From Escherichia coli (GTDB taxonomy: Bacteria; Pseudomonadota; Gammaproteobacteria; Enterobacterales; Enterobacteriaceae): a stretch of DNA of 64,000 nt. The stretch lies in NCBI RefSeq assembly GCF_013315695.1, contig NZ_CP054353.1; one strand, 5' to 3'. The notes under the pieces were generated by a model. It saw only the letters and a program-made list of their open reading frames with translations, made no database searches and had not been told where the DNA came from. The position numbers were made by a program, and so were the translations under genes. Numbering within the stretch: the first letter of the stretch is position 1; the number at the start of each line of letters is the position of its first letter. Of this stretch, positions 20,251 through 44,840 are shown in pieces.

Positions 20251-20548
20251 ATTTACTACTTTCAGGCCTAACACCACGGCCTGTGCAACATCGTGTTCCA
20301 ACGAACGAATTATAACCATCGGTGGACCCCGTTGCAATTAAGATAATGAGATTTATAATCCTGACTGTTGGGAGGTTGCGCCGGATCGAACCCATTTCAA
20401 GTCCTGGCTACCGGACGGGTGGTGCCGCAGGTAGTGCCCTGATCCGGAGTGCAACATCGTGGTCCAACATACGTAAACCAGTATCGACAGGCAGGTGATG
20501 CTGCCAACTTACTGATTTAGTGTATGATGGTGTTTTTGAGGTGCTCCA

Positions 20549-20824
20549 GTGGCTTCTGTTTCTATCAGCTGTCCCTCCTGTTCAGCTACTGACGGGGTGG
20601 TGCGTAACGGCAAAAGCACCGCCGGACATCAGCGCTATCTCTGCTCTCACTGCCGTAAAACATGGCAACTGCAGTTCACTTACACCGCTTCTCAACCCGG
20701 TACGCACCAGAAAATCATTGATATGGCCATGAATGGCGTTGGATGCCGGGCAACAGCCCGCATTATGGGCGTTGGCCTCAACACGATTTTACGTCACTTA
20801 AAAAACTCAGGCCGCAGTCGGTAA
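20549..20824 (+). CDS. insA: IS1 InsA
   Basis: 91-aa ORF inside IS1 copy A. Confidence 0.9.
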
Positions 20825-21246
20825 CCTCGCGCATACAGCCGGGCAGTGACGTCATCGTCTGCGCGGAAATGGACGAACAGTGGGGCTATGTCGGGGCTAA
20901 ATCGCGCCAGCGCTGGCTGTTTTACGCGTATGACAGGCTCCGGAAGACGGTTGTTGCGCACGTATTCGGTGAACGCACTATGGCGACGCTGGGGCGTCTT
21001 ATGAGCCTGCTGTCACCCTTTGACGTGGTGATATGGATGACGGATGGCTGGCCGCTGTATGAATCCCGCCTGAAGGGAAAGCTGCACGTAATCAGCAAGC
21101 GATATACGCAGCGAATTGAGCGGCATAACCTGAATCTGAGGCAGCACCTGGCACGGCTGGGACGGAAGTCGCTGTCGTTCTCAAAATCGGTGGAGCTGCA
21201 TGACAAAGTCATCGGGCATTATCTGAACATAAAACACTATCAATAA
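20743..21246 (+). CDS. insB: IS1 InsB (expressed as InsAB' fusion by frameshifting)
   Basis: 167-aa ORF overlapping insA inside IS1 copy A. Confidence 0.9.
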
Positions 21247-21256
21247 GTTGGAGTCA

Positions 21257-21967
21257 TTACCCAGTAGCATATTCCAGACCGCCTTCCTGAATAATCTGAT
21301 CCATAACATCCTCACGCTCTTTATATCTCGTGCAGTGCAGTTCAAGTGCCGCGAGTACAGCCATTACCGGTGATGGTAATTTTGTCGTTTTCGGGCTGTT
21401 AATCAGATCGATCGCCTGAGCGATGAAGTTTTGCCACTCTAAAGTACAGGCGCTGAAGTCAAATGTAGCTGTTTTGTTATCCCGTTGCGACACGCCACAG
21501 GCTAAGCGACGTAACTGGGTTAATTTATCTACAGGTGTAACAGGATCTCCGGGAAAGCGGCGATGGCTTAAGGTGGTGGGTACGACTTCAAGCGGAAAAA
21601 CGACAGCAATATCTTTTGCCAGCCACGGTAAAATAACGTCTGTATTTTTGTCAGCCACGTAGATTTCTGGTGTAACTGAGGGCTGTTCCTGAATGATGGT
21701 AGAAAAGTCAGATAATTCGAGAGTTTTCGTTACCGTTCGAGTATGTTTCGATGTAGCATTCTCCGCTTGTTCCACATACCCCTTTTTCGTTTTCTCCGCA
21801 ATCAGCTTGAGTTCCGCTTTTTCCGCCGCCGCAGCATCTGCAAAGCTTTTTACCTGACTTTGCCCGTTGGTGCCGACTTTGCCCCAACTGATATTCAGTT
21901 CGTTTCCCTGCTGCTCCACCGCCCAGAATTTATGTGATTTTTCGTCCTGATAAATATAGGTTTTCAT
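21257..21967 (-). pseudogene. yehI: yehI-like WGR-domain protein, N-terminal 235 codons only, truncated by IS1 copy A
   Basis: ORF begins MKTYIYQDEKSHKFWAV (WGR) and its stop codon lies inside the IS1 terminus. Confidence 0.65.
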
Positions 21968-31148: not shown

Positions 31149-31203
31149 GGTGATGCTGCCAACTTACTGATTTAGTGTATGATGGTGTTTTTGAGGTGCT
31201 CCA

Positions 31204-31479
31204 GTGGCTTCTGTTTCTATCAGCTGTCCCTCCTGTTCAGCTACTGACGGGGTGGTGCGTAACGGCAAAAGCACCGCCGGACATCAGCGCTATCTCTGCT
31301 CTCACTGCCGTAAAACATGGCAACTGCAGTTCACTTACACCGCTTCTCAACCCGGTACGCACCAGAAAATCATTGATATGGCCATGAATGGCGTTGGATG
31401 CCGGGCAACAGCCCGCATTATGGGCGTTGGCCTCAACACGATTTTACGTCACTTAAAAAACTCAGGCCGCAGTCGGTAA
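31204..31479 (+). CDS. insA: IS1 InsA
   Basis: Identical to the other copies. Confidence 0.9.
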
Positions 31480-31901
31480 CCTCGCGCATACAGCCGGGCA
31501 GTGACGTCATCGTCTGCGCGGAAATGGACGAACAGTGGGGCTATGTCGGGGCTAAATCGCGCCAGCGCTGGCTGTTTTACGCGTATGACAGGCTCCGGAA
31601 GACGGTTGTTGCGCACGTATTCGGTGAACGCACTATGGCGACGCTGGGGCGTCTTATGAGCCTGCTGTCACCCTTTGACGTGGTGATATGGATGACGGAT
31701 GGCTGGCCGCTGTATGAATCCCGCCTGAAGGGAAAGCTGCACGTAATCAGCAAGCGATATACGCAGCGAATTGAGCGGCATAACCTGAATCTGAGGCAGC
31801 ACCTGGCACGGCTGGGACGGAAGTCGCTGTCGTTCTCAAAATCGGTGGAGCTGCATGACAAAGTCATCGGGCATTATCTGAACATAAAACACTATCAATA
31901 A
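31398..31901 (+). CDS. insB: IS1 InsB
   Basis: Identical to the other copies. Confidence 0.9.
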
Positions 31902-31967
31902 GTTGGAGTCATTACCTAAATAGGCTTGATGAAAGTTCTATTTCTATATTTTTCAATATACAAATTT

Positions 31968-32494: not shown

Positions 32495-32631
32495 ATTCAA
32501 CCAAACGACTCGGGGTGCCCTTCTGCGTGAAGGCTGAGAAATACCCGTATCACCTGATCTGGATAATGCCAGCGTAGGGAAGTCACGGACCACCAGGTCA
32601 TTGCTTCTTCACGTTATGGCAGGAGCAAACT
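32495..32631 (+). promoter_or_regulatory. TPP (THI-box) riboswitch in the thiM leader
   Basis: Contains ggggtgcccttctgcgtgaaggctgagaaatacccgtatcacctgatctggataatgccagcgtagggaa, the classic thiM THI-box, directly upstream of the thiM start. Confidence 0.85.
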
Positions 32632-33420
32632 ATGCAAGTCGACCTGCTGAGTTCCGCGCAATCTGCGCACGCGTTACATCTTTTTCACAAACATTCCCCC
32701 CTTGTGCACTGTATGACCAATGATGTGGTGCAAACCTTTACTGCCAATACCTTACTGGCGCTCGGTGCATCGCCAGCGATGGTCATCGAAACCGAAGAGG
32801 CCAGTCAGTTTGCGGCAATCGCCAGTGCGTTGCTGATTAACGTTGGCACGCTGACGCAGCCACGCGCACAGGCGATGCGTGCCGCCGTTGAACAGGCAAA
32901 ACGCTCTCAAACACCCTGGACGCTTGATCCAGTAGCGGTGGGTGCACTCGATTATCGCCGCCGTTTTTGTCTGGAACTTCTGTCTCATAAGCCAACCGCC
33001 ATACGTGGTAATGCTTCGGAAATCATGGCATTAGCTGGCGTTGCTAATGGCGGACGGGGAGTGGATACCACTGATGCCGCAGCTAACGCGATACCTGCTG
33101 CACAAACACTGGCACGGGAAACTGGCGCAATCGTCGTGGTCACTGGCGAGGTGGATTATGTTACCGATGGACATCGTATCGTTGGCATTCACGGTGGCGA
33201 TCCGCTAATGACCAAAGTGGTAGGAACTGGCTGTGCATTATCGGCGGTTGTCGCTGCCTGTTGTGCGCTACCAGGCGATACGCTGGAAAATATCGCATCT
33301 GCCTGTCACTGGATGAAACAAGCCGGAGAACGCGCAGTTGCCAGAAGCGAGGGGCCAGGCAGTTTTGTTCCACATTTCCTTGATGCGCTCTGGCAATTGA
33401 CGCAGGAGGTGCAGGCATGA
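32632..33420 (+). CDS. thiM: Hydroxyethylthiazole kinase
   Basis: 262-aa ORF downstream of the TPP riboswitch. Confidence 0.95.
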
Positions 33421-34272: not shown

Positions 34273-35100
34273 ATGAAACCAATGCAGCTGAGAATCACCA
34301 GTCGAAAAAAATTCACCGCTTTATTATGCGCTCTTGGGCTAATTTCCATCGTTGCAATTTATCCGCGTCAGACGGTGAATTTTTTCTATTCGACAGCAAT
34401 TCAGATTAAAGACTACATCCACTTCTACGGTTATCGCCCGGTCAAATCTTTTGCTATTCGCATTCCTGCCAGTTACACCATTCATGGTATTGATGTTTCA
34501 CGCTGGCAGGAGCGAATCGACTGGCAGCGGGTGGCAAAAATGCGCGATAACGGTATTCGCTTACAATTTGCCTTTATTAAGGCGACGGAAGGCGAAAAGC
34601 TGGTGGACCCCTATTTTTCGCGTAACTGGCAACTAAGCCGCGAAAATGGCCTGCTGCGCGGGGCGTATCATTATTTTTCCCCGTCGGTATCCGCTTCAGT
34701 TCAGGCGAGATTATTTCTGCAAACGGTGGATTTCTCACAAGGCGATTTCCCTGCCGTGCTGGACGTAGAAGAACGGGGAAAATTATCGGCAAAAGAATTA
34801 CGCAAGCGGGTAAGTCAGTGGCTAAAAATGGTCGAAAAAAGTACGGGGAAAAAGCCGATTATTTACTCAGGAGCCGTTTTTTATCACACGAATCTGGCGG
34901 GCTATTTCAATGAATATCCGTGGTGGGTGGCTCACTACTATCAACGTCGTCCGGACAATGACGGCATGGCCTGGCGCTTCTGGCAGCATTCCGACCGTGG
35001 ACAGGTCGATGGCATTAATGGTCCGGTGGATTTTAATGTGTTTAATGGCACAGAGGAGGAGTTGCAGGGATTCGTTGATGGGATTAAAGAAACGCCTTAA
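34273..35100 (+). CDS. yegX: YegX, glycoside hydrolase family 25 (lysozyme-like)
   Basis: 275-aa ORF with N-terminal signal/anchor; start may be at 34282 (MQLRITS). Confidence 0.75.
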   Translation: MKPMQLRITSRKKFTALLCALGLISIVAIYPRQTVNFFYSTAIQIKDYIHFYGYRPVKSFAIRIPASYTIHGIDVSRWQERIDWQRVAKMRDNGIRLQFAFIKATEGEKLVDPYFSRNWQLSRENGLLRGAYHYFSPSVSASVQARLFLQTVDFSQGDFPAVLDVEERGKLSAKELRKRVSQWLKMVEKSTGKKPIIYSGAVFYHTNLAGYFNEYPWWVAHYYQRRPDNDGMAWRFWQHSDRGQVDGINGPVDFNVFNGTEEELQGFVDGIKETP

Positions 35101-35151: not shown

Positions 35152-35898
35152 ATGGAACAAGCGCATACCCAGCTGATTGCCCAACTGAACGAACGTATTT
35201 TAGCGGCGGATAACACGCCGCTTTATATTAAGTTTGCCGAAACGGTAAAAAATGCCGTGCGCAGCGGGGTGCTGGAGCATGGCAATATTTTGCCCGGTGA
35301 GCGTGATTTAAGTCAGTTAACCGGCGTTTCGCGCATTACGGTGCGCAAGGCGATGCAGGCGCTGGAAGAAGAGGGCGTGGTGACGCGTTCGCGTGGTTAC
35401 GGCACGCAGATCAACAACATCTTCGAATACTCGCTGAAAGAAGCGCGGGGGTTTTCTCAGCAGGTGGTATTGCGCGGGAAAAAGCCCGATACGCTATGGG
35501 TTAACAAGCGTGTCGTGAAATGTCCCGAAGAAGTCGCGCAACAGCTGGCGGTCGAAGCGGGAAGTGATGTCTTTTTGCTTAAGCGTATTCGCTATGTCGA
35601 TGAAGAGGCGGTATCGATTGAGGAATCGTGGGTTCCGGCGCATTTAATTCATGATGTTGATGCCATCGGAATTTCTCTTTATGACTACTTCCGCAGCCAG
35701 CACATTTACCCACAACGTACGCGTTCCCGCGTTAGCGCCCGGATGCCGGATGCCGAGTTTCAGTCACATATTCAGTTAGATAGCAAAATACCGGTGCTGG
35801 TGATCAAGCAAGTGGCGCTTGACCAACAGCAACGGCCTATTGAGTACAGCATCAGCTACTGTCGCAGCGATCTATACGTTTTTGTGTGCGAGGAGTAG
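35152..35898 (+). CDS. yegW: GntR-family transcriptional regulator YegW
   Basis: 248-aa ORF; N-terminal winged HTH, C-terminal effector domain. Confidence 0.85.
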   Translation: MEQAHTQLIAQLNERILAADNTPLYIKFAETVKNAVRSGVLEHGNILPGERDLSQLTGVSRITVRKAMQALEEEGVVTRSRGYGTQINNIFEYSLKEARGFSQQVVLRGKKPDTLWVNKRVVKCPEEVAQQLAVEAGSDVFLLKRIRYVDEEAVSIEESWVPAHLIHDVDAIGISLYDYFRSQHIYPQRTRSRVSARMPDAEFQSHIQLDSKIPVLVIKQVALDQQQRPIEYSISYCRSDLYVFVCEE

Positions 35899-36837
35899 TT
35901 CCTCGCGCGTTGGCGCACAATCACCGCCCCGATGCCCGACAACCCACGACGCCACTGCATTGCCCAGTAATACGGCATCCGCCAGTGGCAGACCAGAGGC
36001 CAGCCCGGCAAGTACGCCGCCGGCATGACTGTCGCCCGCCCCAATGGTGTCTACAACTTGCGTTGGAAATGCCGGAATGCAGCCAGAAGCGTCGTTGCTG
36101 AAATACCATGCGCCCTCTTTATCGAGACGAATGATCAACGGCGCGGCAAATTTCTCCTGCCATTGCTTGCCTAGTGTTGTTATCTCTGCGGATAGAGCAA
36201 AACGTTCGGCGGCAATCTCAGCCTCCTGACGATTGAGTGACACTAAAGGTCGACAGGCCATGATCCGCGCCAGTAATACATCCGGGATATCGCCAATACG
36301 TGGGCCAAAATCGATAAACGGCGTCACGTCTTGCAGCTTTTCCAGCCATTCCACTAACAATTCGCCGCAGGGCGAGGCCAGTTGATAACCGGAAAAATAG
36401 AGCAGGCTGCCAGGCGCAACGGTTAATCGCGCCAGCCACTGGCGATTCCACTGATTTTCCACACCGCTGAATGACATAAAAGTGCGTTCGCCATCCGGCT
36501 CAACCAGCGCCAGACACCAGCCGTTATCACCTTCGGCGTTATCGATCAGGCTGATTAAGTCCTCTTTTGCCATCCGGTTGCGAATAATCTCCGCCCACAC
36601 CCCCTGACCGAGCGGCAAGGCATTACCCGCTTCGATGCCGAGGCGCTTTAATGCCACGGCAATATTCAGTGCACAGCCGCCAACGTTAACGCTCTGCTGT
36701 TTCAGTTCGATATCGCACCCACGCCAGGGGAGGGCATAAGCGTCGGCGATCACATCAATGACCGCCGCGCCGACGACCATCACCGGCTGACGCGTGGCTA
36801 ATTCAGGCAGCAGCGTGTGTAATCGAGCGCCGCTCAT
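35872..36837 (-). CDS. yegV: PfkB-family sugar/nucleoside kinase YegV
   Basis: 321-aa ORF with PfkB-type motifs (GAGD). Confidence 0.85.
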   Translation of the reverse strand: MSGARLHTLLPELATRQPVMVVGAAVIDVIADAYALPWRGCDIELKQQSVNVGGCALNIAVALKRLGIEAGNALPLGQGVWAEIIRNRMAKEDLISLIDNAEGDNGWCLALVEPDGERTFMSFSGVENQWNRQWLARLTVAPGSLLYFSGYQLASPCGELLVEWLEKLQDVTPFIDFGPRIGDIPDVLLARIMACRPLVSLNRQEAEIAAERFALSAEITTLGKQWQEKFAAPLIIRLDKEGAWYFSNDASGCIPAFPTQVVDTIGAGDSHAGGVLAGLASGLPLADAVLLGNAVASWVVGHRGGDCAPTREELLLAHKNV

Positions 36838-37838
36838 ATCGCCTCCCGTTGTTGGCGATACTTCGCCAGCGCCGTGGCATAGCGGTTGAAATCAAGCTGA
36901 TTTACTGCATCCAGTTCCGCCTTTAACGCAGGATCGATAGCGTTAACGCCATGCAACGCGCCGCAAATTGCCGTCGCCATAGCACCGATGGTGTCTGTGT
37001 CGCCGCCAAGGTTAGCGCACAGGACGGCGCAACGGTTCGGGTCGGTTTGTGCCAGTTCAACCAGCGCAATGGCGCACGGAACGGACTCAATAGTGCTGGT
37101 ACCTGCGCCAACGACCTGGTAAAGCTGTTCGCTGGCGGATTCGGTGCCATCGGCATTGCGCACAATTTTCAGCGCAATCTCCAGACGTGCTGCCAGTGAG
37201 GCGCTGAAGGTAGTGATGCGTTTTTGTTGAGCATGTCGCGCAATTGAAGGCAGTGAATCAACAATCGCTGACCAGCTTTCTCCGTCAATGGCACGAGAAA
37301 TCGCCCATGCGATGACTACCGCCCCCGCAACCGCCAGATCGGATTTATGTGTCGGGCTGGAGGCCAGCGCCACATCATCAATAAAAGAGTCAATATCGCG
37401 CGCCGGAAGCAAACAACCTAATGGCGAGACGCGCATCGCTGCGCCGTTGGTCACGCCGTTATTTTCCAGTTCAGCAACGGGTTTACCGTCGCGAATGGCG
37501 TTAAGCGCAATCTTCGAGGTCGGACCTAGTACGTTTTTGTTAAAGGCGTCGAAACGCAGCGCCCAGTCGAGAATATTACGCCCAATCAGATCCGGATCGA
37601 TCTTGCCTTCACGTTCCAGTAACGCATCCGCCAGACACAGCGCCATCGAGGTATCGTCGGTGAATTCGGCGCGGTTAAAATAACAGGCTGCGTTATTCTC
37701 CTTTGGCCCAGGCAGAAAACGGTCAATCCAGCCAAAGTGTGCTTTGACGCGACTGCGCGGCCAAAGCTCGGAGGGCATCCCCATCGCATCCCCTAACGCC
37801 TGCCCATAAAGAGCACCGAGAATACGTTCTGTTTTCAT
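36834..37838 (-). CDS. yegU: ADP-ribosylglycohydrolase-family protein YegU
   Basis: 334-aa ORF; 4-nt overlap with yegV. Confidence 0.85.
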   Translation of the reverse strand: MKTERILGALYGQALGDAMGMPSELWPRSRVKAHFGWIDRFLPGPKENNAACYFNRAEFTDDTSMALCLADALLEREGKIDPDLIGRNILDWALRFDAFNKNVLGPTSKIALNAIRDGKPVAELENNGVTNGAAMRVSPLGCLLPARDIDSFIDDVALASSPTHKSDLAVAGAVVIAWAISRAIDGESWSAIVDSLPSIARHAQQKRITTFSASLAARLEIALKIVRNADGTESASEQLYQVVGAGTSTIESVPCAIALVELAQTDPNRCAVLCANLGGDTDTIGAMATAICGALHGVNAIDPALKAELDAVNQLDFNRYATALAKYRQQREAI

Positions 37839-39112
37839 TTAACTTCCCCTTGTGTCAACGCAATATCGCGATCATCGACCTTGATAGCCGTAATTTCGTT
37901 GTCGGATTCGCGGAAAAAAATCATGAACAGCACGGCGATAATGGCAATCATCACCGCGCCGAAAGTCCACATCCCGGCCCAGTTGAAAGTCAGTCCGTTT
38001 ACCGGTTCCTGATAAGCGAACATCTTTTCCATCATCACACCGCCAAGACGATAGCCGAGCAAACTGCCGAAGCCCTGGCAGCAGAGCGTGATCAGCCCCT
38101 GCGCGGCGGTACGCATATGCACGGGAGCTTTTTTATCGACATAGATGTAAGCGGTAACGTAGTAAAAATCGTAACTTACGCCGTGCAGCAAAATACCGAG
38201 GAACAGTAACGCGTAGGTGAAATATTCATCCGCACTACCGTAAATAAAGAAGCCATAGCGGATCGCAGCGGTGACCAGACCAAGTAATAATACCTTTTTG
38301 ATACCAAAGCGTTTGGTAAAAAACGGTAATGCCAGCATAAAGAAGATTTCAGAGAACTGGCCGAGCGTCATCCAGCCAGTGGCGTTTTTCATGCCAACTT
38401 CGGTCAGATAACCGTTGGCAAAGATGTAATAGAACGCCAGTGGCATCGCAAACAGGAATGAACAGAAGAAAAAGACGAGGAAGTTCTTATCGCGCAGCAG
38501 GATCAGCGCATCCAGGCCGAGCATGACTTTAATATCCATTTTGCCGGTGCTTTTTGGTGGCGTGTCGGGCAGGAAAAACGCAAACACACCAAGCAGAGCA
38601 GAACTTCCGGCGGTAATCAGCAGCGGGATGTTCGTCGGTGAGATATCGGCATAACCCAGCATTTGCGGCAAGAATCCACATGCCAGACCAGAGGCAATCC
38701 AGCCGATAGTGCCCATCACACGAATGCGCGGGAAATCACGCTCCACATCCGGCACGTTGGCAAAAGCGATACTGTTAGTCAGCGCAATGGTCGGCATATA
38801 GGTTAGCGAGTAGGCCAGCAGTAACGGGAAGAAGCCGGCAAAAGTGGTCTGTTGCGCAGCGAAATACATCAGCACCGCACCAGCGAACATCAATACCGCC
38901 AGCACTTTCTGTGCCGAGAAAAAGCGGTCAGTGATGGAGCCAACCAGAATCGGCGACAGGATCGCCGCAATGGCGGTACAGGCATACGACCAGCCAATTT
39001 CTCCGGCACTAAAACCGCTTTTACTTAACCACAACCACAATGGCACAAACCACGCGCCCCAGATAAACCATTCAACAAACATCATGAACGACAGCTTTGC
39101 TGTTGTTTTCAT
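37835..39112 (-). CDS. yegT: MFS nucleoside transporter YegT
   Basis: 425-aa polytopic membrane ORF; overlaps yegU start. Confidence 0.85.
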   Translation of the reverse strand: MKTTAKLSFMMFVEWFIWGAWFVPLWLWLSKSGFSAGEIGWSYACTAIAAILSPILVGSITDRFFSAQKVLAVLMFAGAVLMYFAAQQTTFAGFFPLLLAYSLTYMPTIALTNSIAFANVPDVERDFPRIRVMGTIGWIASGLACGFLPQMLGYADISPTNIPLLITAGSSALLGVFAFFLPDTPPKSTGKMDIKVMLGLDALILLRDKNFLVFFFCSFLFAMPLAFYYIFANGYLTEVGMKNATGWMTLGQFSEIFFMLALPFFTKRFGIKKVLLLGLVTAAIRYGFFIYGSADEYFTYALLFLGILLHGVSYDFYYVTAYIYVDKKAPVHMRTAAQGLITLCCQGFGSLLGYRLGGVMMEKMFAYQEPVNGLTFNWAGMWTFGAVMIAIIAVLFMIFFRESDNEITAIKVDDRDIALTQGEVK

Positions 39113-39170
39113 CTTTTAATTCCTTCATGACAGGTAATGTAAGGTACGCGATGACGGTAATGACTCCAAC

Positions 39171-39674
39171 TTATTGATAGTGTTTTATGTTCAGATAATG
39201 CCCGATGACTTTGTCATGCAGCTCCACCGATTTTGAGAACGACAGCGACTTCCGTCCCAGCCGTGCCAGGTGCTGCCTCAGATTCAGGTTATGCCGCTCA
39301 ATTCGCTGCGTATATCGCTTGCTGATTACGTGCAGCTTTCCCTTCAGGCGGGATTCATACAGCGGCCAGCCATCCGTCATCCATATCACCACGTCAAAGG
39401 GTGACAGCAGGCTCATAAGACGCCCCAGCGTCGCCATAGTGCGTTCACCGAATACGTGCGCAACAACCGTCTTCCGGAGCCTGTCATACGCGTAAAACAG
39501 CCAGCGCTGGCGCGATTTAGCCCCGACATAGCCCCACTGTTCGTCCATTTCCGCGCAGACGATGACGTCACTGCCCGGCTGTATGCGCGAGGTTACCGAC
39601 TGCGGCCTGAGTTTTTTAAGTGACGTAAAATCGTGTTGAGGCCAACGCCCATAATGCGGGCTGTTGCCCGGCAT
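39171..39674 (-). CDS. insB: IS1 InsB
   Basis: Identical to the other copies. Confidence 0.9.
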
Positions 39675-39868
39675 CCAACGCCATTCATGGCCATATCAAT
39701 GATTTTCTGGTGCGTACCGGGTTGAGAAGCGGTGTAAGTGAACTGCAGTTGCCATGTTTTACGGCAGTGAGAGCAGAGATAGCGCTGATGTCCGGCGGTG
39801 CTTTTGCCGTTACGCACCACCCCGTCAGTAGCTGAACAGGAGGGACAGCTGATAGAAACAGAAGCCAC
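39593..39868 (-). CDS. insA: IS1 InsA
   Basis: Identical to the other copies. Confidence 0.9.
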
Positions 39869-40145
39869 TGGAGCACCTCAAAAACACCATCATACACTAA
39901 ATCAGTAAGTTGGCAGCATCACCCGCGATGACAATACCACTTAATAATACCTTTTAAATACCTTTGCGGTGAAAACTTGACCGCTGTAACATTTTTTCTG
40001 ATGAATCGAGCCAACAGAAAACGCTGAAAAAACATCCAAAAGATGGAAAAACTCGCCCGTAACGACCAGGATTATGATTGCCCGCAAAAGGCGGGCCAGG
40101 ACAATCCATAGCCGATATCCAATCGGAATTTACGGGAGCATAGTA

Positions 40146-41198
40146 ATGACAGATATTGCGCAGTTGCTTGGCAAAGACGCCGACAACCTTTTACAGCACC
40201 GTTGTATGACTATTCCTTCTGACCAGCTTTATCTCCCCGGACATGACTACGTAGACCGCGTGATGATTGACAATAATCGCCCGCCAGCGGTGTTACGTAA
40301 TATGCAGACGTTGTACAACACCGGGCGTCTGGCTGGCACAGGATATCTTTCTATTCTGCCGGTTGACCAGGGCGTTGAGCACTCTGCCGGAGCTTCATTT
40401 GCCGCTAACCCGCTCTACTTTGACCCGAAAAACATTGTTGAACTGGCGATCGAAGCGGGCTGTAACTGCGTGGCGTCAACTTACGGCGTGCTGGCATCGG
40501 TATCTCGGCGTTACGCGCATCGCATTCCATTCCTCGTCAAACTTAATCACAACGAGACGCTAAGTTACCCGAATACCTACGATCAAACGCTGTATGCCAG
40601 CGTGGAGCAGGCGTTCAATATGGGCGCGGTGGCGGTTGGGGCGACTATCTATTTTGGCTCGGAAGAGTCACGTCGCCAGATTGAAGAAATTTCTGCGGCT
40701 TTTGAACGTGCGCACGAGCTGGGCATGGTGACAGTGCTGTGGGCCTATTTGCGTAACTCCGCCTTTAAGAAAGATGGCGTTGATTACCATGTTTCCGCCG
40801 ACCTGACTGGTCAGGCGAACCATCTGGCGGCAACCATAGGTGCAGATATCGTCAAACAAAAAATGGCGGAAAATAACGGCGGCTATAAAGCGATTAATTA
40901 CGGTTATACCGACGATCGTGTTTACAGCAAATTGACCAGCGAAAACCCGATTGATCTGGTGCGTTATCAGTTAGCTAACTGCTATATGGGCCGGGCTGGG
41001 TTGATAAACTCCGGCGGTGCTGCGGGCGGTGAAACTGACCTCAGCGATGCAGTGCGTACTGCGGTTATCAACAAACGCGCTGGCGGAATGGGGCTGATTC
41101 TTGGACGTAAGGCGTTCAAGAAATCGATGGCTGACGGCGTGAAACTGATTAACGCCGTGCAGGACGTTTATCTCGATAGCAAAATTACTATCGCCTGA
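40146..41198 (+). CDS. fbaB: Fructose-bisphosphate aldolase class I
   Basis: ORF 40074..41198; start [18 protein letters not shown]; 350 aa. Confidence 0.9.
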
Positions 41199-43571: not shown

Positions 43572-43854
43572 GGACGGTATATGACTAACCTGTTTGTTCG
43601 TAGCGGAATTTCTTTTGTCGATCGTAGCGAAGTTTTAGCCCATATCGGTAATGAGATGCTCGCGAAAGGTGTGGTTCATGATACCTGGCCACAGGCATTA
43701 ATTGCCAGAGAAGCAGAATTCCCTACCGGGATAATGCTTGAGCAGCACGCCATTGCAATACCGCATTGTGAGGCGATTCATGCTAAGTCGTCAGCCATTG
43801 GTGATGCTGCCAACTTACTGATTTAGTGTATGATGGTGTTTTTGAGGTGCTCCA

Positions 43855-44130
43855 GTGGCTTCTGTTTCTATCAGCTGTCCCTCCTGTTCAGCTACTGACG
43901 GGGTGGTGCGTAACGGCAAAAGCACCGCCGGACATCAGCGCTATCTCTGCTCTCACTGCCGTAAAACATGGCAACTGCAGTTCACTTACACCGCTTCTCA
44001 ACCCGGTACGCACCAGAAAATCATTGATATGGCCATGAATGGCGTTGGATGCCGGGCAACAGCCCGCATTATGGGCGTTGGCCTCAACACGATTTTACGT
44101 CACTTAAAAAACTCAGGCCGCAGTCGGTAA
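43855..44130 (+). CDS. insA: IS1 InsA
   Basis: Identical to the other copies. Confidence 0.9.
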
Positions 44131-44552
44131 CCTCGCGCATACAGCCGGGCAGTGACGTCATCGTCTGCGCGGAAATGGACGAACAGTGGGGCTATGTCGG
44201 GGCTAAATCGCGCCAGCGCTGGCTGTTTTACGCGTATGACAGGCTCCGGAAGACGGTTGTTGCGCACGTATTCGGTGAACGCACTATGGCGACGCTGGGG
44301 CGTCTTATGAGCCTGCTGTCACCCTTTGACGTGGTGATATGGATGACGGATGGCTGGCCGCTGTATGAATCCCGCCTGAAGGGAAAGCTGCACGTAATCA
44401 GCAAGCGATATACGCAGCGAATTGAGCGGCATAACCTGAATCTGAGGCAGCACCTGGCACGGCTGGGACGGAAGTCGCTGTCGTTCTCAAAATCGGTGGA
44501 GCTGCATGACAAAGTCATCGGGCATTATCTGAACATAAAACACTATCAATAA
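44049..44552 (+). CDS. insB: IS1 InsB
   Basis: Identical to the other copies. Confidence 0.9.
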
Positions 44553-44840
44553 GTTGGAGTCATTACCTCAGCCATTTATCTGTTAAGGCCAACAAATAAA
44601 GTTCATTTTCAGCAAGCGGATGATGATAACGACGTGGCGGTATCGTTGGTTATTGCGTTGATTGTGGAAAATCCGCAGCAGCAATTGAAACTTTTACGCT
44701 GTTTATTTGGCAAGTTACAACAGCCCGATATCGTCGAGACACTAATTACTCTTCCTGAAACTCAGTTAAAGGAATACTTCACAAAGTATGTTTTAGATTC
44801 AGACGAATAAATCCCTCTGTAACAATAAAAAGGACTGTTT

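Follow-up and report, generated by a model that had tools for sequence, protein, structure and literature searches.

What happens to an operon with a known regulator when a complete IS1 element comes to lie between its genes and their control region, and what does that operon do? Both questions are raised by one locus on Escherichia coli contig NZ_CP054353.1 (assembly GCF_013315695.1), of which 64,000 nt, referred to here as the window, were analyzed. The locus is the already known ggaR(yegW)-yegTUV system. The sequence indicates that its promoter and operator have been separated from the operon by IS1, rather than that expression has been subtly modulated, and the IS1 allele is a rare, recurrent natural regulatory variant, not a new system. 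The insertion and its immediate neighbors were as follows.

39156-39923, minus strand: IS1, complete, 768 bp (terminal repeats and target duplication read directly; open reading frames, ORFs)
39593-39868, minus strand: insA of this IS1 (ORF)
39171-39674, minus strand: insB' of this IS1, with an A6C frameshift site (ORF)
39113-39155, minus strand: native DNA still attached upstream of yegT, 43 bp, with the Shine-Dalgarno sequence AAGGA, half of a conserved block and the proximal copy of the target duplication
37835-39112, minus strand: yegT, permease in the family of nucleoside:H+ symporters (NHS), 425 aa, first gene of the operon (ORF, Pfam)
40146-41198, plus strand: fbaB, divergent neighbor of yegT (RefSeq annotation)

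Between positions 33000 and 42000, the window differed from strain MSB1_4I by 2 single-nucleotide polymorphisms in 9 kb and showed 97.8% DNA identity to K-12. The element carries imperfect terminal inverted repeats and has all of the features by which IS1 is recognized, and in the RefSeq annotation of MSB1_4I it is an IS1A-family transposase. Its genes are co-directional with yegT, with the right inverted repeat (IRR) adjoining the yegT side and the left one (IRL) facing fbaB. IS1 is bounded by a 9-bp target duplication, CGCGATGAC, with copies at 39147-39155 (proximal) and 39924-39932 (distal); this reads GTCATCGCG in the yegT sense and starts at the last three bases of O1, a candidate operator listed below. 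When IS1 and one copy of the duplication were removed in silico, the 256-bp yegT-fbaB spacer of K-12 was recovered except for 2 nt substitutions. An earlier note on this DNA had placed IS1 in a divergent promoter region immediately upstream of yegT; the element does lie within a control region, that of yegT and fbaB, with fbaB as the divergent partner, and yegW is convergent with yegV. Upstream of fbaB, 213 bp of native DNA are retained, and the insertion probably has little effect on this gene. All four IS1 copies in the window are mutually identical.

Analysis of the spacer and of yegT itself identified the following candidate control elements.

39944-39973, minus strand: predicted native yegT promoter, TTCACC-18-TATTAT (consensus match; -10 inside O1)
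39930-39962, minus strand: O1, candidate primary GgaR operator, GGTATTTAAAAGGTATTATTAAGTGGTATTGTC, 33 nt (three GGTAT repeats with spacings of 11 and 13 nt)
38273-38305, minus strand: O2, candidate second GgaR operator, GGTATCAAAAAGGTATTATTACTTGGTCTGGTC, within yegT (ORF nt 808-840; 27/33 match to O1)
39976-39991, minus strand: TGTTA-N6-TCAAG element, putative CRP site common to yegT and fbaB (leader alignment)

A promoter scan of the K-12 spacer gave one sigma-70-like site on the yegT strand, TTCACC-18-TATTAT, and no other; the window has it as well, beyond IS1. The predicted transcription start lies approximately 13 nt upstream of the insertion point, which puts the insertion at about +13, within the predicted 5' untranslated region. 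Alignment of the yegT leaders of E. coli, Salmonella, Citrobacter, Kluyvera, and Klebsiella showed strong conservation of the last ~95 bp, a block that IS1 splits mid-way. O1 is nearly invariant across these five genera; its native position is -73 to -41 from the yegT ATG.

Saito et al. found that GgaR bound exactly two probes, one of 190 bp upstream of yegT (strongly) and one covering ORF nt 571-869 (more weakly), and defined no operator sequence, motif, or footprint (PMC10819704). O1 lies inside the 190-bp probe, the one bound most strongly, and O2 falls in the ORF segment, for which binding was seen by electrophoretic mobility shift assay (EMSA) and chromatin immunoprecipitation (PMC10819704). 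O2 was the only 33-mer with no more than 12 mismatches to O1 on both strands of the window (128 kb searched), and its core is kept in Salmonella, Citrobacter, Kluyvera, and Klebsiella, including the rare GTA/TTA codons. Because their positions coincide with both GgaR-bound probes, we propose O1 and O2 as GgaR operators: O1, which contains the promoter -10, is likely to be the operator proper, and O2 a weaker copy in the yegT ORF. A triple GGTnT repeat akin to O1 was also found upstream of a related module, L005 (71% identity). The more distant modules L006, L010, L012, and L015 had no GGTAT-type motif upstream, which confines the operator motif to enterobacterial-type modules.

For CRP, a genomic SELEX (systematic evolution of ligands by exponential enrichment) site has been listed as "fbaB<CRP>yegT" (PMC3105977), and for this reason we read TGTTA-N6-TCAAG as a possible CRP site; that it is the exact sequence bound is possible. 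TGTTA and CGGTCAA are invariant in the five genera. An Rfam search over 32-42 kb returned the thiM thiamine pyrophosphate (TPP) riboswitch alone; the yegT-fbaB spacer gave no match to an RNA element. O1, the -10, and the putative CRP site are all intact, but a complete IS1 now stands between them and yegT, so that they are 777 bp further from the gene and no longer contiguous with it.

The regulator concerned has been described in some detail. YegW was renamed GgaR in 2024 as a single-target repressor of yegTUV present at ~20-30 molecules per cell, and yegTUV forms one 3.3-kb transcript that was undetectable in wild-type K-12 and rose ~30-fold in a ggaR deletion; fbaB is not regulated by GgaR (PMC10819704). 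In EMSA, 10-100 μM ADP-glucose freed GgaR from DNA, whereas glucose and ADP did not (PMC10819704). The ggaR deletion accumulated 2-3 fold more glycogen and grew poorly on glucose minimal medium, and lower glycogen was reported for a deletion of yegV (PMC10819704). The earlier note's description of the module as uncharacterized is outdated in view of these results and of a published YegT structure (PMC11979927). A published substrate and function, which that note had named as grounds for giving up its view, now exists for the regulator but not for the enzymes or the transporter.

Polarity of IS1 is Rho-dependent and arises across the largely untranslated insB' region, and an IS1 between a promoter and its operon is expected to bring either polarity or outward promoter activity. 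Transcripts from the native yegT promoter would enter IS1 in the insA sense and would have to cross insB'. Since they must cross a polar IS1, yegTUV would be largely cut off from induction through GgaR and CRP. No intrinsic terminator was predicted on the yegT strand across IS1, and a promoter scan at the IS1-yegT junction found no consensus outward or hybrid promoter. Any transcription of the operon that remains would be weak, constitutive, and from IS1, and O2 might still act as a roadblock. From this arrangement we consider it probable that yegTUV is uncoupled from GgaR/CRP control, with expression that is low and not inducible. The insertion resembles the classical polar IS1 insertions in gal and lac in consisting of a 768-bp IS1 with a 9-bp duplication between promoter and operon, and differs from them in that the yegT leader has been hit independently twice at one nucleotide, with a third event 21 bp away.

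This recurrence was established in a set of 5,426 complete genomes. The yegT-fbaB spacer was uninterrupted in 5,414 of them, and a yegT-IS1 junction was present in five. Three of the five (MSB1_4I, OZ547117, and the horse strain A30) carry IS1 at this exact nucleotide, while two wastewater isolates carry an IS1B 21 bp nearer yegT, with duplication CATGACAGG and 22 bp left before the ATG. The flanking DNA differed from the window at 95 of 4,004 bases in A30 and at 42 of 2,535 bases in B1.H1.18; because the carrier backgrounds differ, three independent insertion events, two of them at one base, are indicated. IS1 is co-directional with yegT in all five carriers, and a synthetic query for the opposite-orientation junction matched none of the genomes. 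The three genomes with the insertion at -43 each had at least 40 IS1 matches, compared with ~10 places in the median genome. A high supply of IS1 together with an A+T-rich preferred target is a sufficient explanation of the recurrence. In A30, the other end of IS1 is joined to a truncated gatR, with fbaB-gatYZABCD deleted, and a second IS1 lies 1.3 kb further (L004 6100-7276).

Several points weigh against the loss of regulated expression. The predicted yegT promoter agrees with the consensus at 9/12 positions and its -35 is poorly conserved, and it is formally possible that the 43 bp still attached to the gene hold a promoter. The assignment of O1 and O2 as operators is drawn from their co-location with the published probes, not from a footprint. 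An IS1 end can supply a -35, and at the junction TTGGAG from the IRR and, 17 nt on, TACCTT just past the 9-bp duplication form a hybrid, TTGGAG-17-TACCTT; it matches 6/12 positions, has the key T-A---T of a -10, and would act without O1. The three independent insertions are also co-directional, a hint of selection for read-out, although with n = 3 this is not significant.

The last two points would fit a different outcome, in which IS1, having displaced the native promoter that the operator overlaps, activates yegTUV through a hybrid promoter or by read-through from the insA promoter and makes the operon constitutive and GgaR-blind, as in a ggaR null. Such cells would be expected to hold more glycogen and to grow more slowly on glucose minimal medium. 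IS1-derived hybrid promoters and the activation of silent operons by IS1 or IS5 have precedents in bla TEM-6, bgl, and acrEF, and the clustering of three independent insertions within 21 bp would also suit activation. However, the 6/12 hybrid promoter falls under the scan threshold, at the second insertion site, which lies 22 bp from the ATG in B1.H1.18, no -10 stands at the right spacing, and O2 is still present. InsA binds the IS1 ends, and with at least 40 matched pieces the carrier genomes are rich in IS1, so repression should extend to the IRL promoter and to the IRR hybrid alike. The chance of the same orientation in three events is p ~0.25, and de-repression is costly on glucose (PMC10819704). 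We therefore regard activation as unlikely, and uncoupling of yegTUV from GgaR/CRP control as the better account of the allele.

The remaining genes of the locus were as follows.

35152-35898, plus strand: yegW (ggaR), repressor of the GntR/HutC subfamily, 248 aa (ORF, RefSeq name, Pfam)
35872-36837, minus strand: yegV, PfkB-family kinase, 321 aa, last gene of the operon (ORF, RefSeq name, Pfam)
36834-37838, minus strand: yegU, enzyme of the ADP-ribosylglycohydrolase (ARH) fold, 334 aa (ORF, Pfam)

The ORF coordinates agree exactly with the four genes that the earlier note had placed at 35152-39112. RefSeq annotation of MSB1_4I and K-12 gives identical names for yegW, yegV, yegU, and yegT, and Pfam assigned GntR and UTRA domains to YegW, PfkB to YegV, ADP_ribosyl_GH to YegU, and Nuc_H_symport to YegT, all far over the gathering scores. 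The four genes are full length and without internal stops, with 1-7 aa changes each relative to K-12, and yegW and yegT-yegU-yegV sit between thiMD/yegX and fbaB, as in K-12 and MSB1_4I. The K-12 GgaR-yegTUV system (Saito et al. 2024, PMC10819704) thus has the same genes, order, and overlaps, and a spacer identical but for 2 nt once IS1 is removed; the present locus differs from it in the IS1 between promoter/operator and yegT and in a private YegW substitution, H236Y. yegW is convergent with yegV, and the 3' ends of their coding sequences overlap by 27 nt (35872-35898). The pair has been listed among convergent "excludon" pairs (PMC12288877), and because the overlap is an excludon candidate, silencing or activation of yegTUV could feed back on ggaR expression.

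YegW has the GntR/HutC architecture, with GntR (PF00392, 59 bits, 3e-16) and UTRA (PF07702, 127 bits, 4e-37) domains, and scored under the cutoffs of all NCBIfam equivalog models. Like the HutC-type GntR repressors NagR/DasR, TreR, PhnF, and MngR, it combines a GntR winged helix with UTRA and is a local repressor of a transport/catabolic operon; it differs in having, as candidate operator, three direct repeats of GGTAT and not the short palindrome typical of the subfamily. H236Y (C>T at 35857) is private in that the surrounding 61-mer had no exact match in 5,419 complete genomes. We considered it as a functionally important change and set it aside: position 236 is variable among orthologues, with Tyr native in several, including Salmonella and Pantoea, and the substitution is therefore probably neutral.

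YegT matched Nuc_H_symport at 1e-183 and TIGR00889 with 653 bits against a 446-bit cutoff, and it has the protonation motif GxxxD of transmembrane helix 10 (G311-VSY-D315) as well as E255 and K267. Its 3.1 Å structure has been published, and attempts at isothermal titration calorimetry with uridine, adenosine, cytidine, and guanosine yielded no significant result for binding (PMC11979927). No transport of gemcitabine, xanthosine, uridine, or cytidine was detected (PMC11241209).

YegU matched PF03747 (ADP_ribosyl_GH) with 225 bits against a 26-bit cutoff (1e-66). Its AlphaFold model (pLDDT 97.7) gave Foldseek template modeling (TM) scores of 0.81 to MJ1187 and 0.78 to ARH3, and on this modeled structure the ARH fold is confirmed. 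In ARH3, Glu41 is catalytic, Thr76-Asp78, Asp314, Asp316, and Thr317 are ligands of the binuclear metal center, and Phe143 and Tyr149 sandwich the adenine of ADP-ribose. Pairwise alignment matched GMPSE, TDDT, and GGDTDT of YegU with ARH3 Glu41, Thr76-Asp77-Asp78, and Asp314-Thr317, respectively. D60, H163, and D281 of YegU were invariant in 50 homologues, and the conserved Thr-His is kept, including the phosphate-contacting His. At ARH3 Phe143/Tyr149/Ser148, by pairwise alignment only, YegU has Asn, Val, and a 3-residue gap, with Ser148 deleted. Without the adenine-stacking pair, a ribosyl or phosphoribosyl substrate lacking the ADP moiety is favored for YegU. In the PDB, searches by sequence and by fold gave no characterized small-molecule ARH closer than the uncharacterized MJ1187.

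YegV matched PF00294 with 188 bits and has the catalytic Asp of its GAGD motif at residue 266 and a GG at 53-54. Its best NCBIfam match was ribokinase TIGR02152, at 81 bits against a 300-bit cutoff, too low for a true ribokinase by that model. In ribokinase, the Asp16 equivalent binds the cis-diol of ribose, and Asn14, Lys43, and Glu143 contact the sugar. Alignment with RbsK showed that the Asp16 equivalent, GG, Asn46, and the GAGD Asp are kept, while Asn14, Lys43, and Glu143 are replaced by Val, Cys, and Ala. YegW, YegV, and YegU reached no NCBIfam equivalog (June 2026), and literature searches on yegU/yegV/yegTUV, on GgaR, and on ARH with PfkB returned no defined substrate. The earlier statement that the substrate is undefined still holds in that neither the papers searched nor the NCBIfam 2026 equivalogs give one for the enzymes.

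To place the YegU/YegV pair in a wider context, we surveyed YegU homologues using the best 150 cluster representatives. Twelve of these were about twice the normal length, and nine of the twelve were scanned with Pfam; eight of the nine proved to be ARH-PfkB fusions, in both domain orders. ARH adjoins or is fused to PfkB in all six informative non-enterobacterial neighborhoods, and YegV shares 35% identity (3e-56) with the kinase that lies beside a YegU homologue of 42% identity. The transporter in these contexts varies (NHS, NCS1 with a Transp_cyt_pur domain, or ECF), and a GntR/UTRA regulator often recurs. One ARH-PfkB cluster has a nucleoside phosphorylase, and another has a nucleotide pyrophosphatase with an NCS1 permease and a DeoC aldolase. 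The pairing of ARH with PfkB across swapped transporters supports salvage of an unusual ribosyl compound, and the module for uptake, glycosidic cleavage, and phosphorylation envisaged earlier is supported by the gene content and by these recurrent contexts. Of the evidence on enzyme function, these comparisons carry the most weight. A neighbor in L015 was at one point taken as a phosphopentomutase from a "Metalloenzyme" match; this was rejected, as the Pfam scan identified a type I phosphodiesterase/nucleotide pyrophosphatase. One long homologue, P0161 (692 aa), is a tandem ARH-ARH protein and not an ARH-PfkB fusion.

Known systems suggest how such a pair might work. In the pseudouridine route, the modified nucleoside is phosphorylated first and then cleaved to ribose-5-phosphate, and in some organisms the kinase forms one protein with the glycosidase. 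The pseudouridine genes psuT(yeiM)-psuK(yeiC)-psuG(yeiN) likewise combine a nucleoside permease, a PfkB kinase, and a glycosidase; however, the glycosidase is of the YeiN family (here the ARH fold), the transporter is of the CNT family (here NHS), and YegV scored 18.7 bits against the 540-bit cutoff of the pseudouridine kinase model. The Bacteroidetes Rus loci (bioRxiv 10.1101/574913) also hold ribokinases, a transporter, a regulator, and a varying set of ribose-releasing enzymes, including ADP-ribosylglycohydrolases, but they have the SusC/D architecture of polysaccharide utilization loci, sense free ribose, and are not orthologous to yegTUV. We suggest that YegT would import a non-canonical ribosyl or nucleoside-like compound, that YegV would phosphorylate it, probably at the ribose 5'-OH, and that YegU, as a metal-dependent glycohydrolase of the ARH fold, would cleave the ribosyl bond to yield a pentose phosphate and the aglycone. 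We favor phosphorylation before cleavage by analogy with pseudouridine catabolism, the order being uncertain.

A difficulty for such nucleoside salvage is that it does not obviously explain the link to ADP-glucose and glycogen. The GgaR paper suggests that yegTUV is linked to ADP-glucose or glycogen precursors (PMC10819704), and the operon might act on these directly, for example with YegT taking up ADP-glucose and YegU and YegV processing ADP-sugars. The release of GgaR by ADP-glucose, but not by ADP or glucose, and the opposite glycogen changes in the ggaR and yegV deletions (PMC10819704) speak for this. Against it, ARH enzymes cut at ribose C1'', a bond that ADP-glucose does not have, and YegU lacks the adenine-stacking residues of ARH3. 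Elsewhere, the pair travels with NCS1/ECF transporters, nucleoside phosphorylase, DeoC aldolase, and nucleotide pyrophosphatase, which resembles nucleoside/pentose salvage. The effector panel comprised three compounds and included neither ADP-ribose nor phosphoribosyl compounds; because only these three were tried, ADP-glucose may mimic a true phosphoribosyl inducer. Direct action on ADP-glucose or glycogen precursors therefore seems improbable to us, and salvage of a ribosyl compound remains the preferred function.

With regard to the insertion, it could also be without meaningful effect, either because the functional promoter lies in the retained 43 bp or because, with yegTUV never expressed in nature, the insertion is neutral. 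A yegTUV transcript was not detectable in wild-type K-12 (PMC10819704), the carrier genomes show an IS1 bloom, with many of the insertions probably neutral, and yegT is repeatedly truncated in S. Typhi. However, the 43 bp hold the Shine-Dalgarno sequence and its spacer, with no promoter-like hexamers in the remaining ~30 bp, and both the conserved upstream block and the GgaR-bound probe place control elements at the IS1 cut. The uninterrupted spacer in nearly all of the genomes (5,414/5,426) also suggests constraint, and we consider a neutral insertion very improbable.

Scarcely credible is a role of YegU as a protein de-ADP-ribosylase of the DraG, ARH1/3, or Tri1 kind in signaling, immunity, or defense, with transporter and kinase unrelated to it: its nearest characterized relatives by sequence and fold are indeed ARH3, DraG, and Tri1 (TM 0.75-0.8, with aligned binuclear-metal and catalytic residues), but identity to them is ~22%, the DraG and Tri1 equivalog scores are far under their cutoffs (79 vs 337 bits and 69 vs 490 bits), PADLOC gave no defense-system match for YegW, YegV, YegU, or YegT, no ADP-ribosyltransferase gene is adjacent to yegU, fusion or adjacency with PfkB and transporters recurs, yegU shares its operon with a transporter and a kinase and not with a transferase, and a single yegTUV mRNA is under a sugar-type HutC repressor (PMC10819704).

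A more far-reaching proposal joins two parts, which we put forward only as a pair and regard, as a pair, as conceivable but doubtful. The first is that YegV and YegU represent a widespread two-enzyme route in which an ARH-fold enzyme hydrolyzes a small (phospho)ribosyl metabolite, namely a modified or non-canonical nucleoside, and not ADP-ribosylated macromolecules, with an intermediate of the pathway as the true inducer of GgaR and ADP-glucose as a mimic; if true, such catalysis would be new to the ARH fold. The second is that the yegT leader is an IS1 hot spot and that the same-orientation insertions are selected switches by which yegTUV escapes GgaR.

The locus was already annotated and its regulator published, so that in kind little of this is new. 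What is added is a candidate operator for GgaR, the precise position of IS1 relative to O1, three independent insertions, and evidence for an ARH-PfkB salvage pair. Among E. coli operons, yegTUV is one of those that still have a known regulator and no known substrate, and the ARH-PfkB fusions and transporter swaps lead to a concrete hypothesis, in which a non-canonical ribosyl compound is processed by a kinase and an ARH-type glycosidase. The 33-nt element of O1/O2 is a directly testable proposal for the GgaR operator, and the IS1 allele is a natural mutant for probing the glycogen and growth phenotypes ascribed to yegTUV de-repression. Its recurrence at one nucleotide raises the question of an IS1 hot spot or a selected switch.

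The surroundings of the locus yielded further observations. The synteny fbaB-yegTUV-yegW-thiDM is conserved in Salmonella, Citrobacter, Kluyvera, and Klebsiella. In E. coli, yegX (GH25 lysozyme-like, 34273-35100) separates thiD from yegW; the synteny of those four genera lacks it. The TPP riboswitch is located upstream of thiMD at 32501-32597 (Rfam RF00059, 71 bits). The product of fbaB is a class I aldolase of the DeoC family; in five genera, this gene is conserved as the divergent neighbor of yegT, and an unrelated DeoC-family gene (L015 11150-11875) occurs in the distant cluster around a PfkB::ARH fusion; the presence of a DeoC-family gene near both could be coincidence or could reflect a functional link to a pentose-phosphate product.

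The other IS1 copies in the window lie at a distance from yegTUV. Those at 20494-21261 and 31149-31916 have unmatched 9-bp flanks (CGACAGGCA/CAGTAGCAT and CAAACGTCG/TAAATAGGC, respectively), which indicates IS1-mediated deletion or rearrangement. To the left of 31149, the DNA differs from the integrase/HNH segment that MSB1_4I has there; in K-12, rcnR-rcnA-rcnB-yehA lie upstream of thiM. The fourth copy (43800-44567, plus strand, duplication TCAGCCATT) interrupts gatA, which encodes the IIA component of the galactitol phosphotransferase system, and with gatA split in this way the strain probably lacks a functional gat operon.

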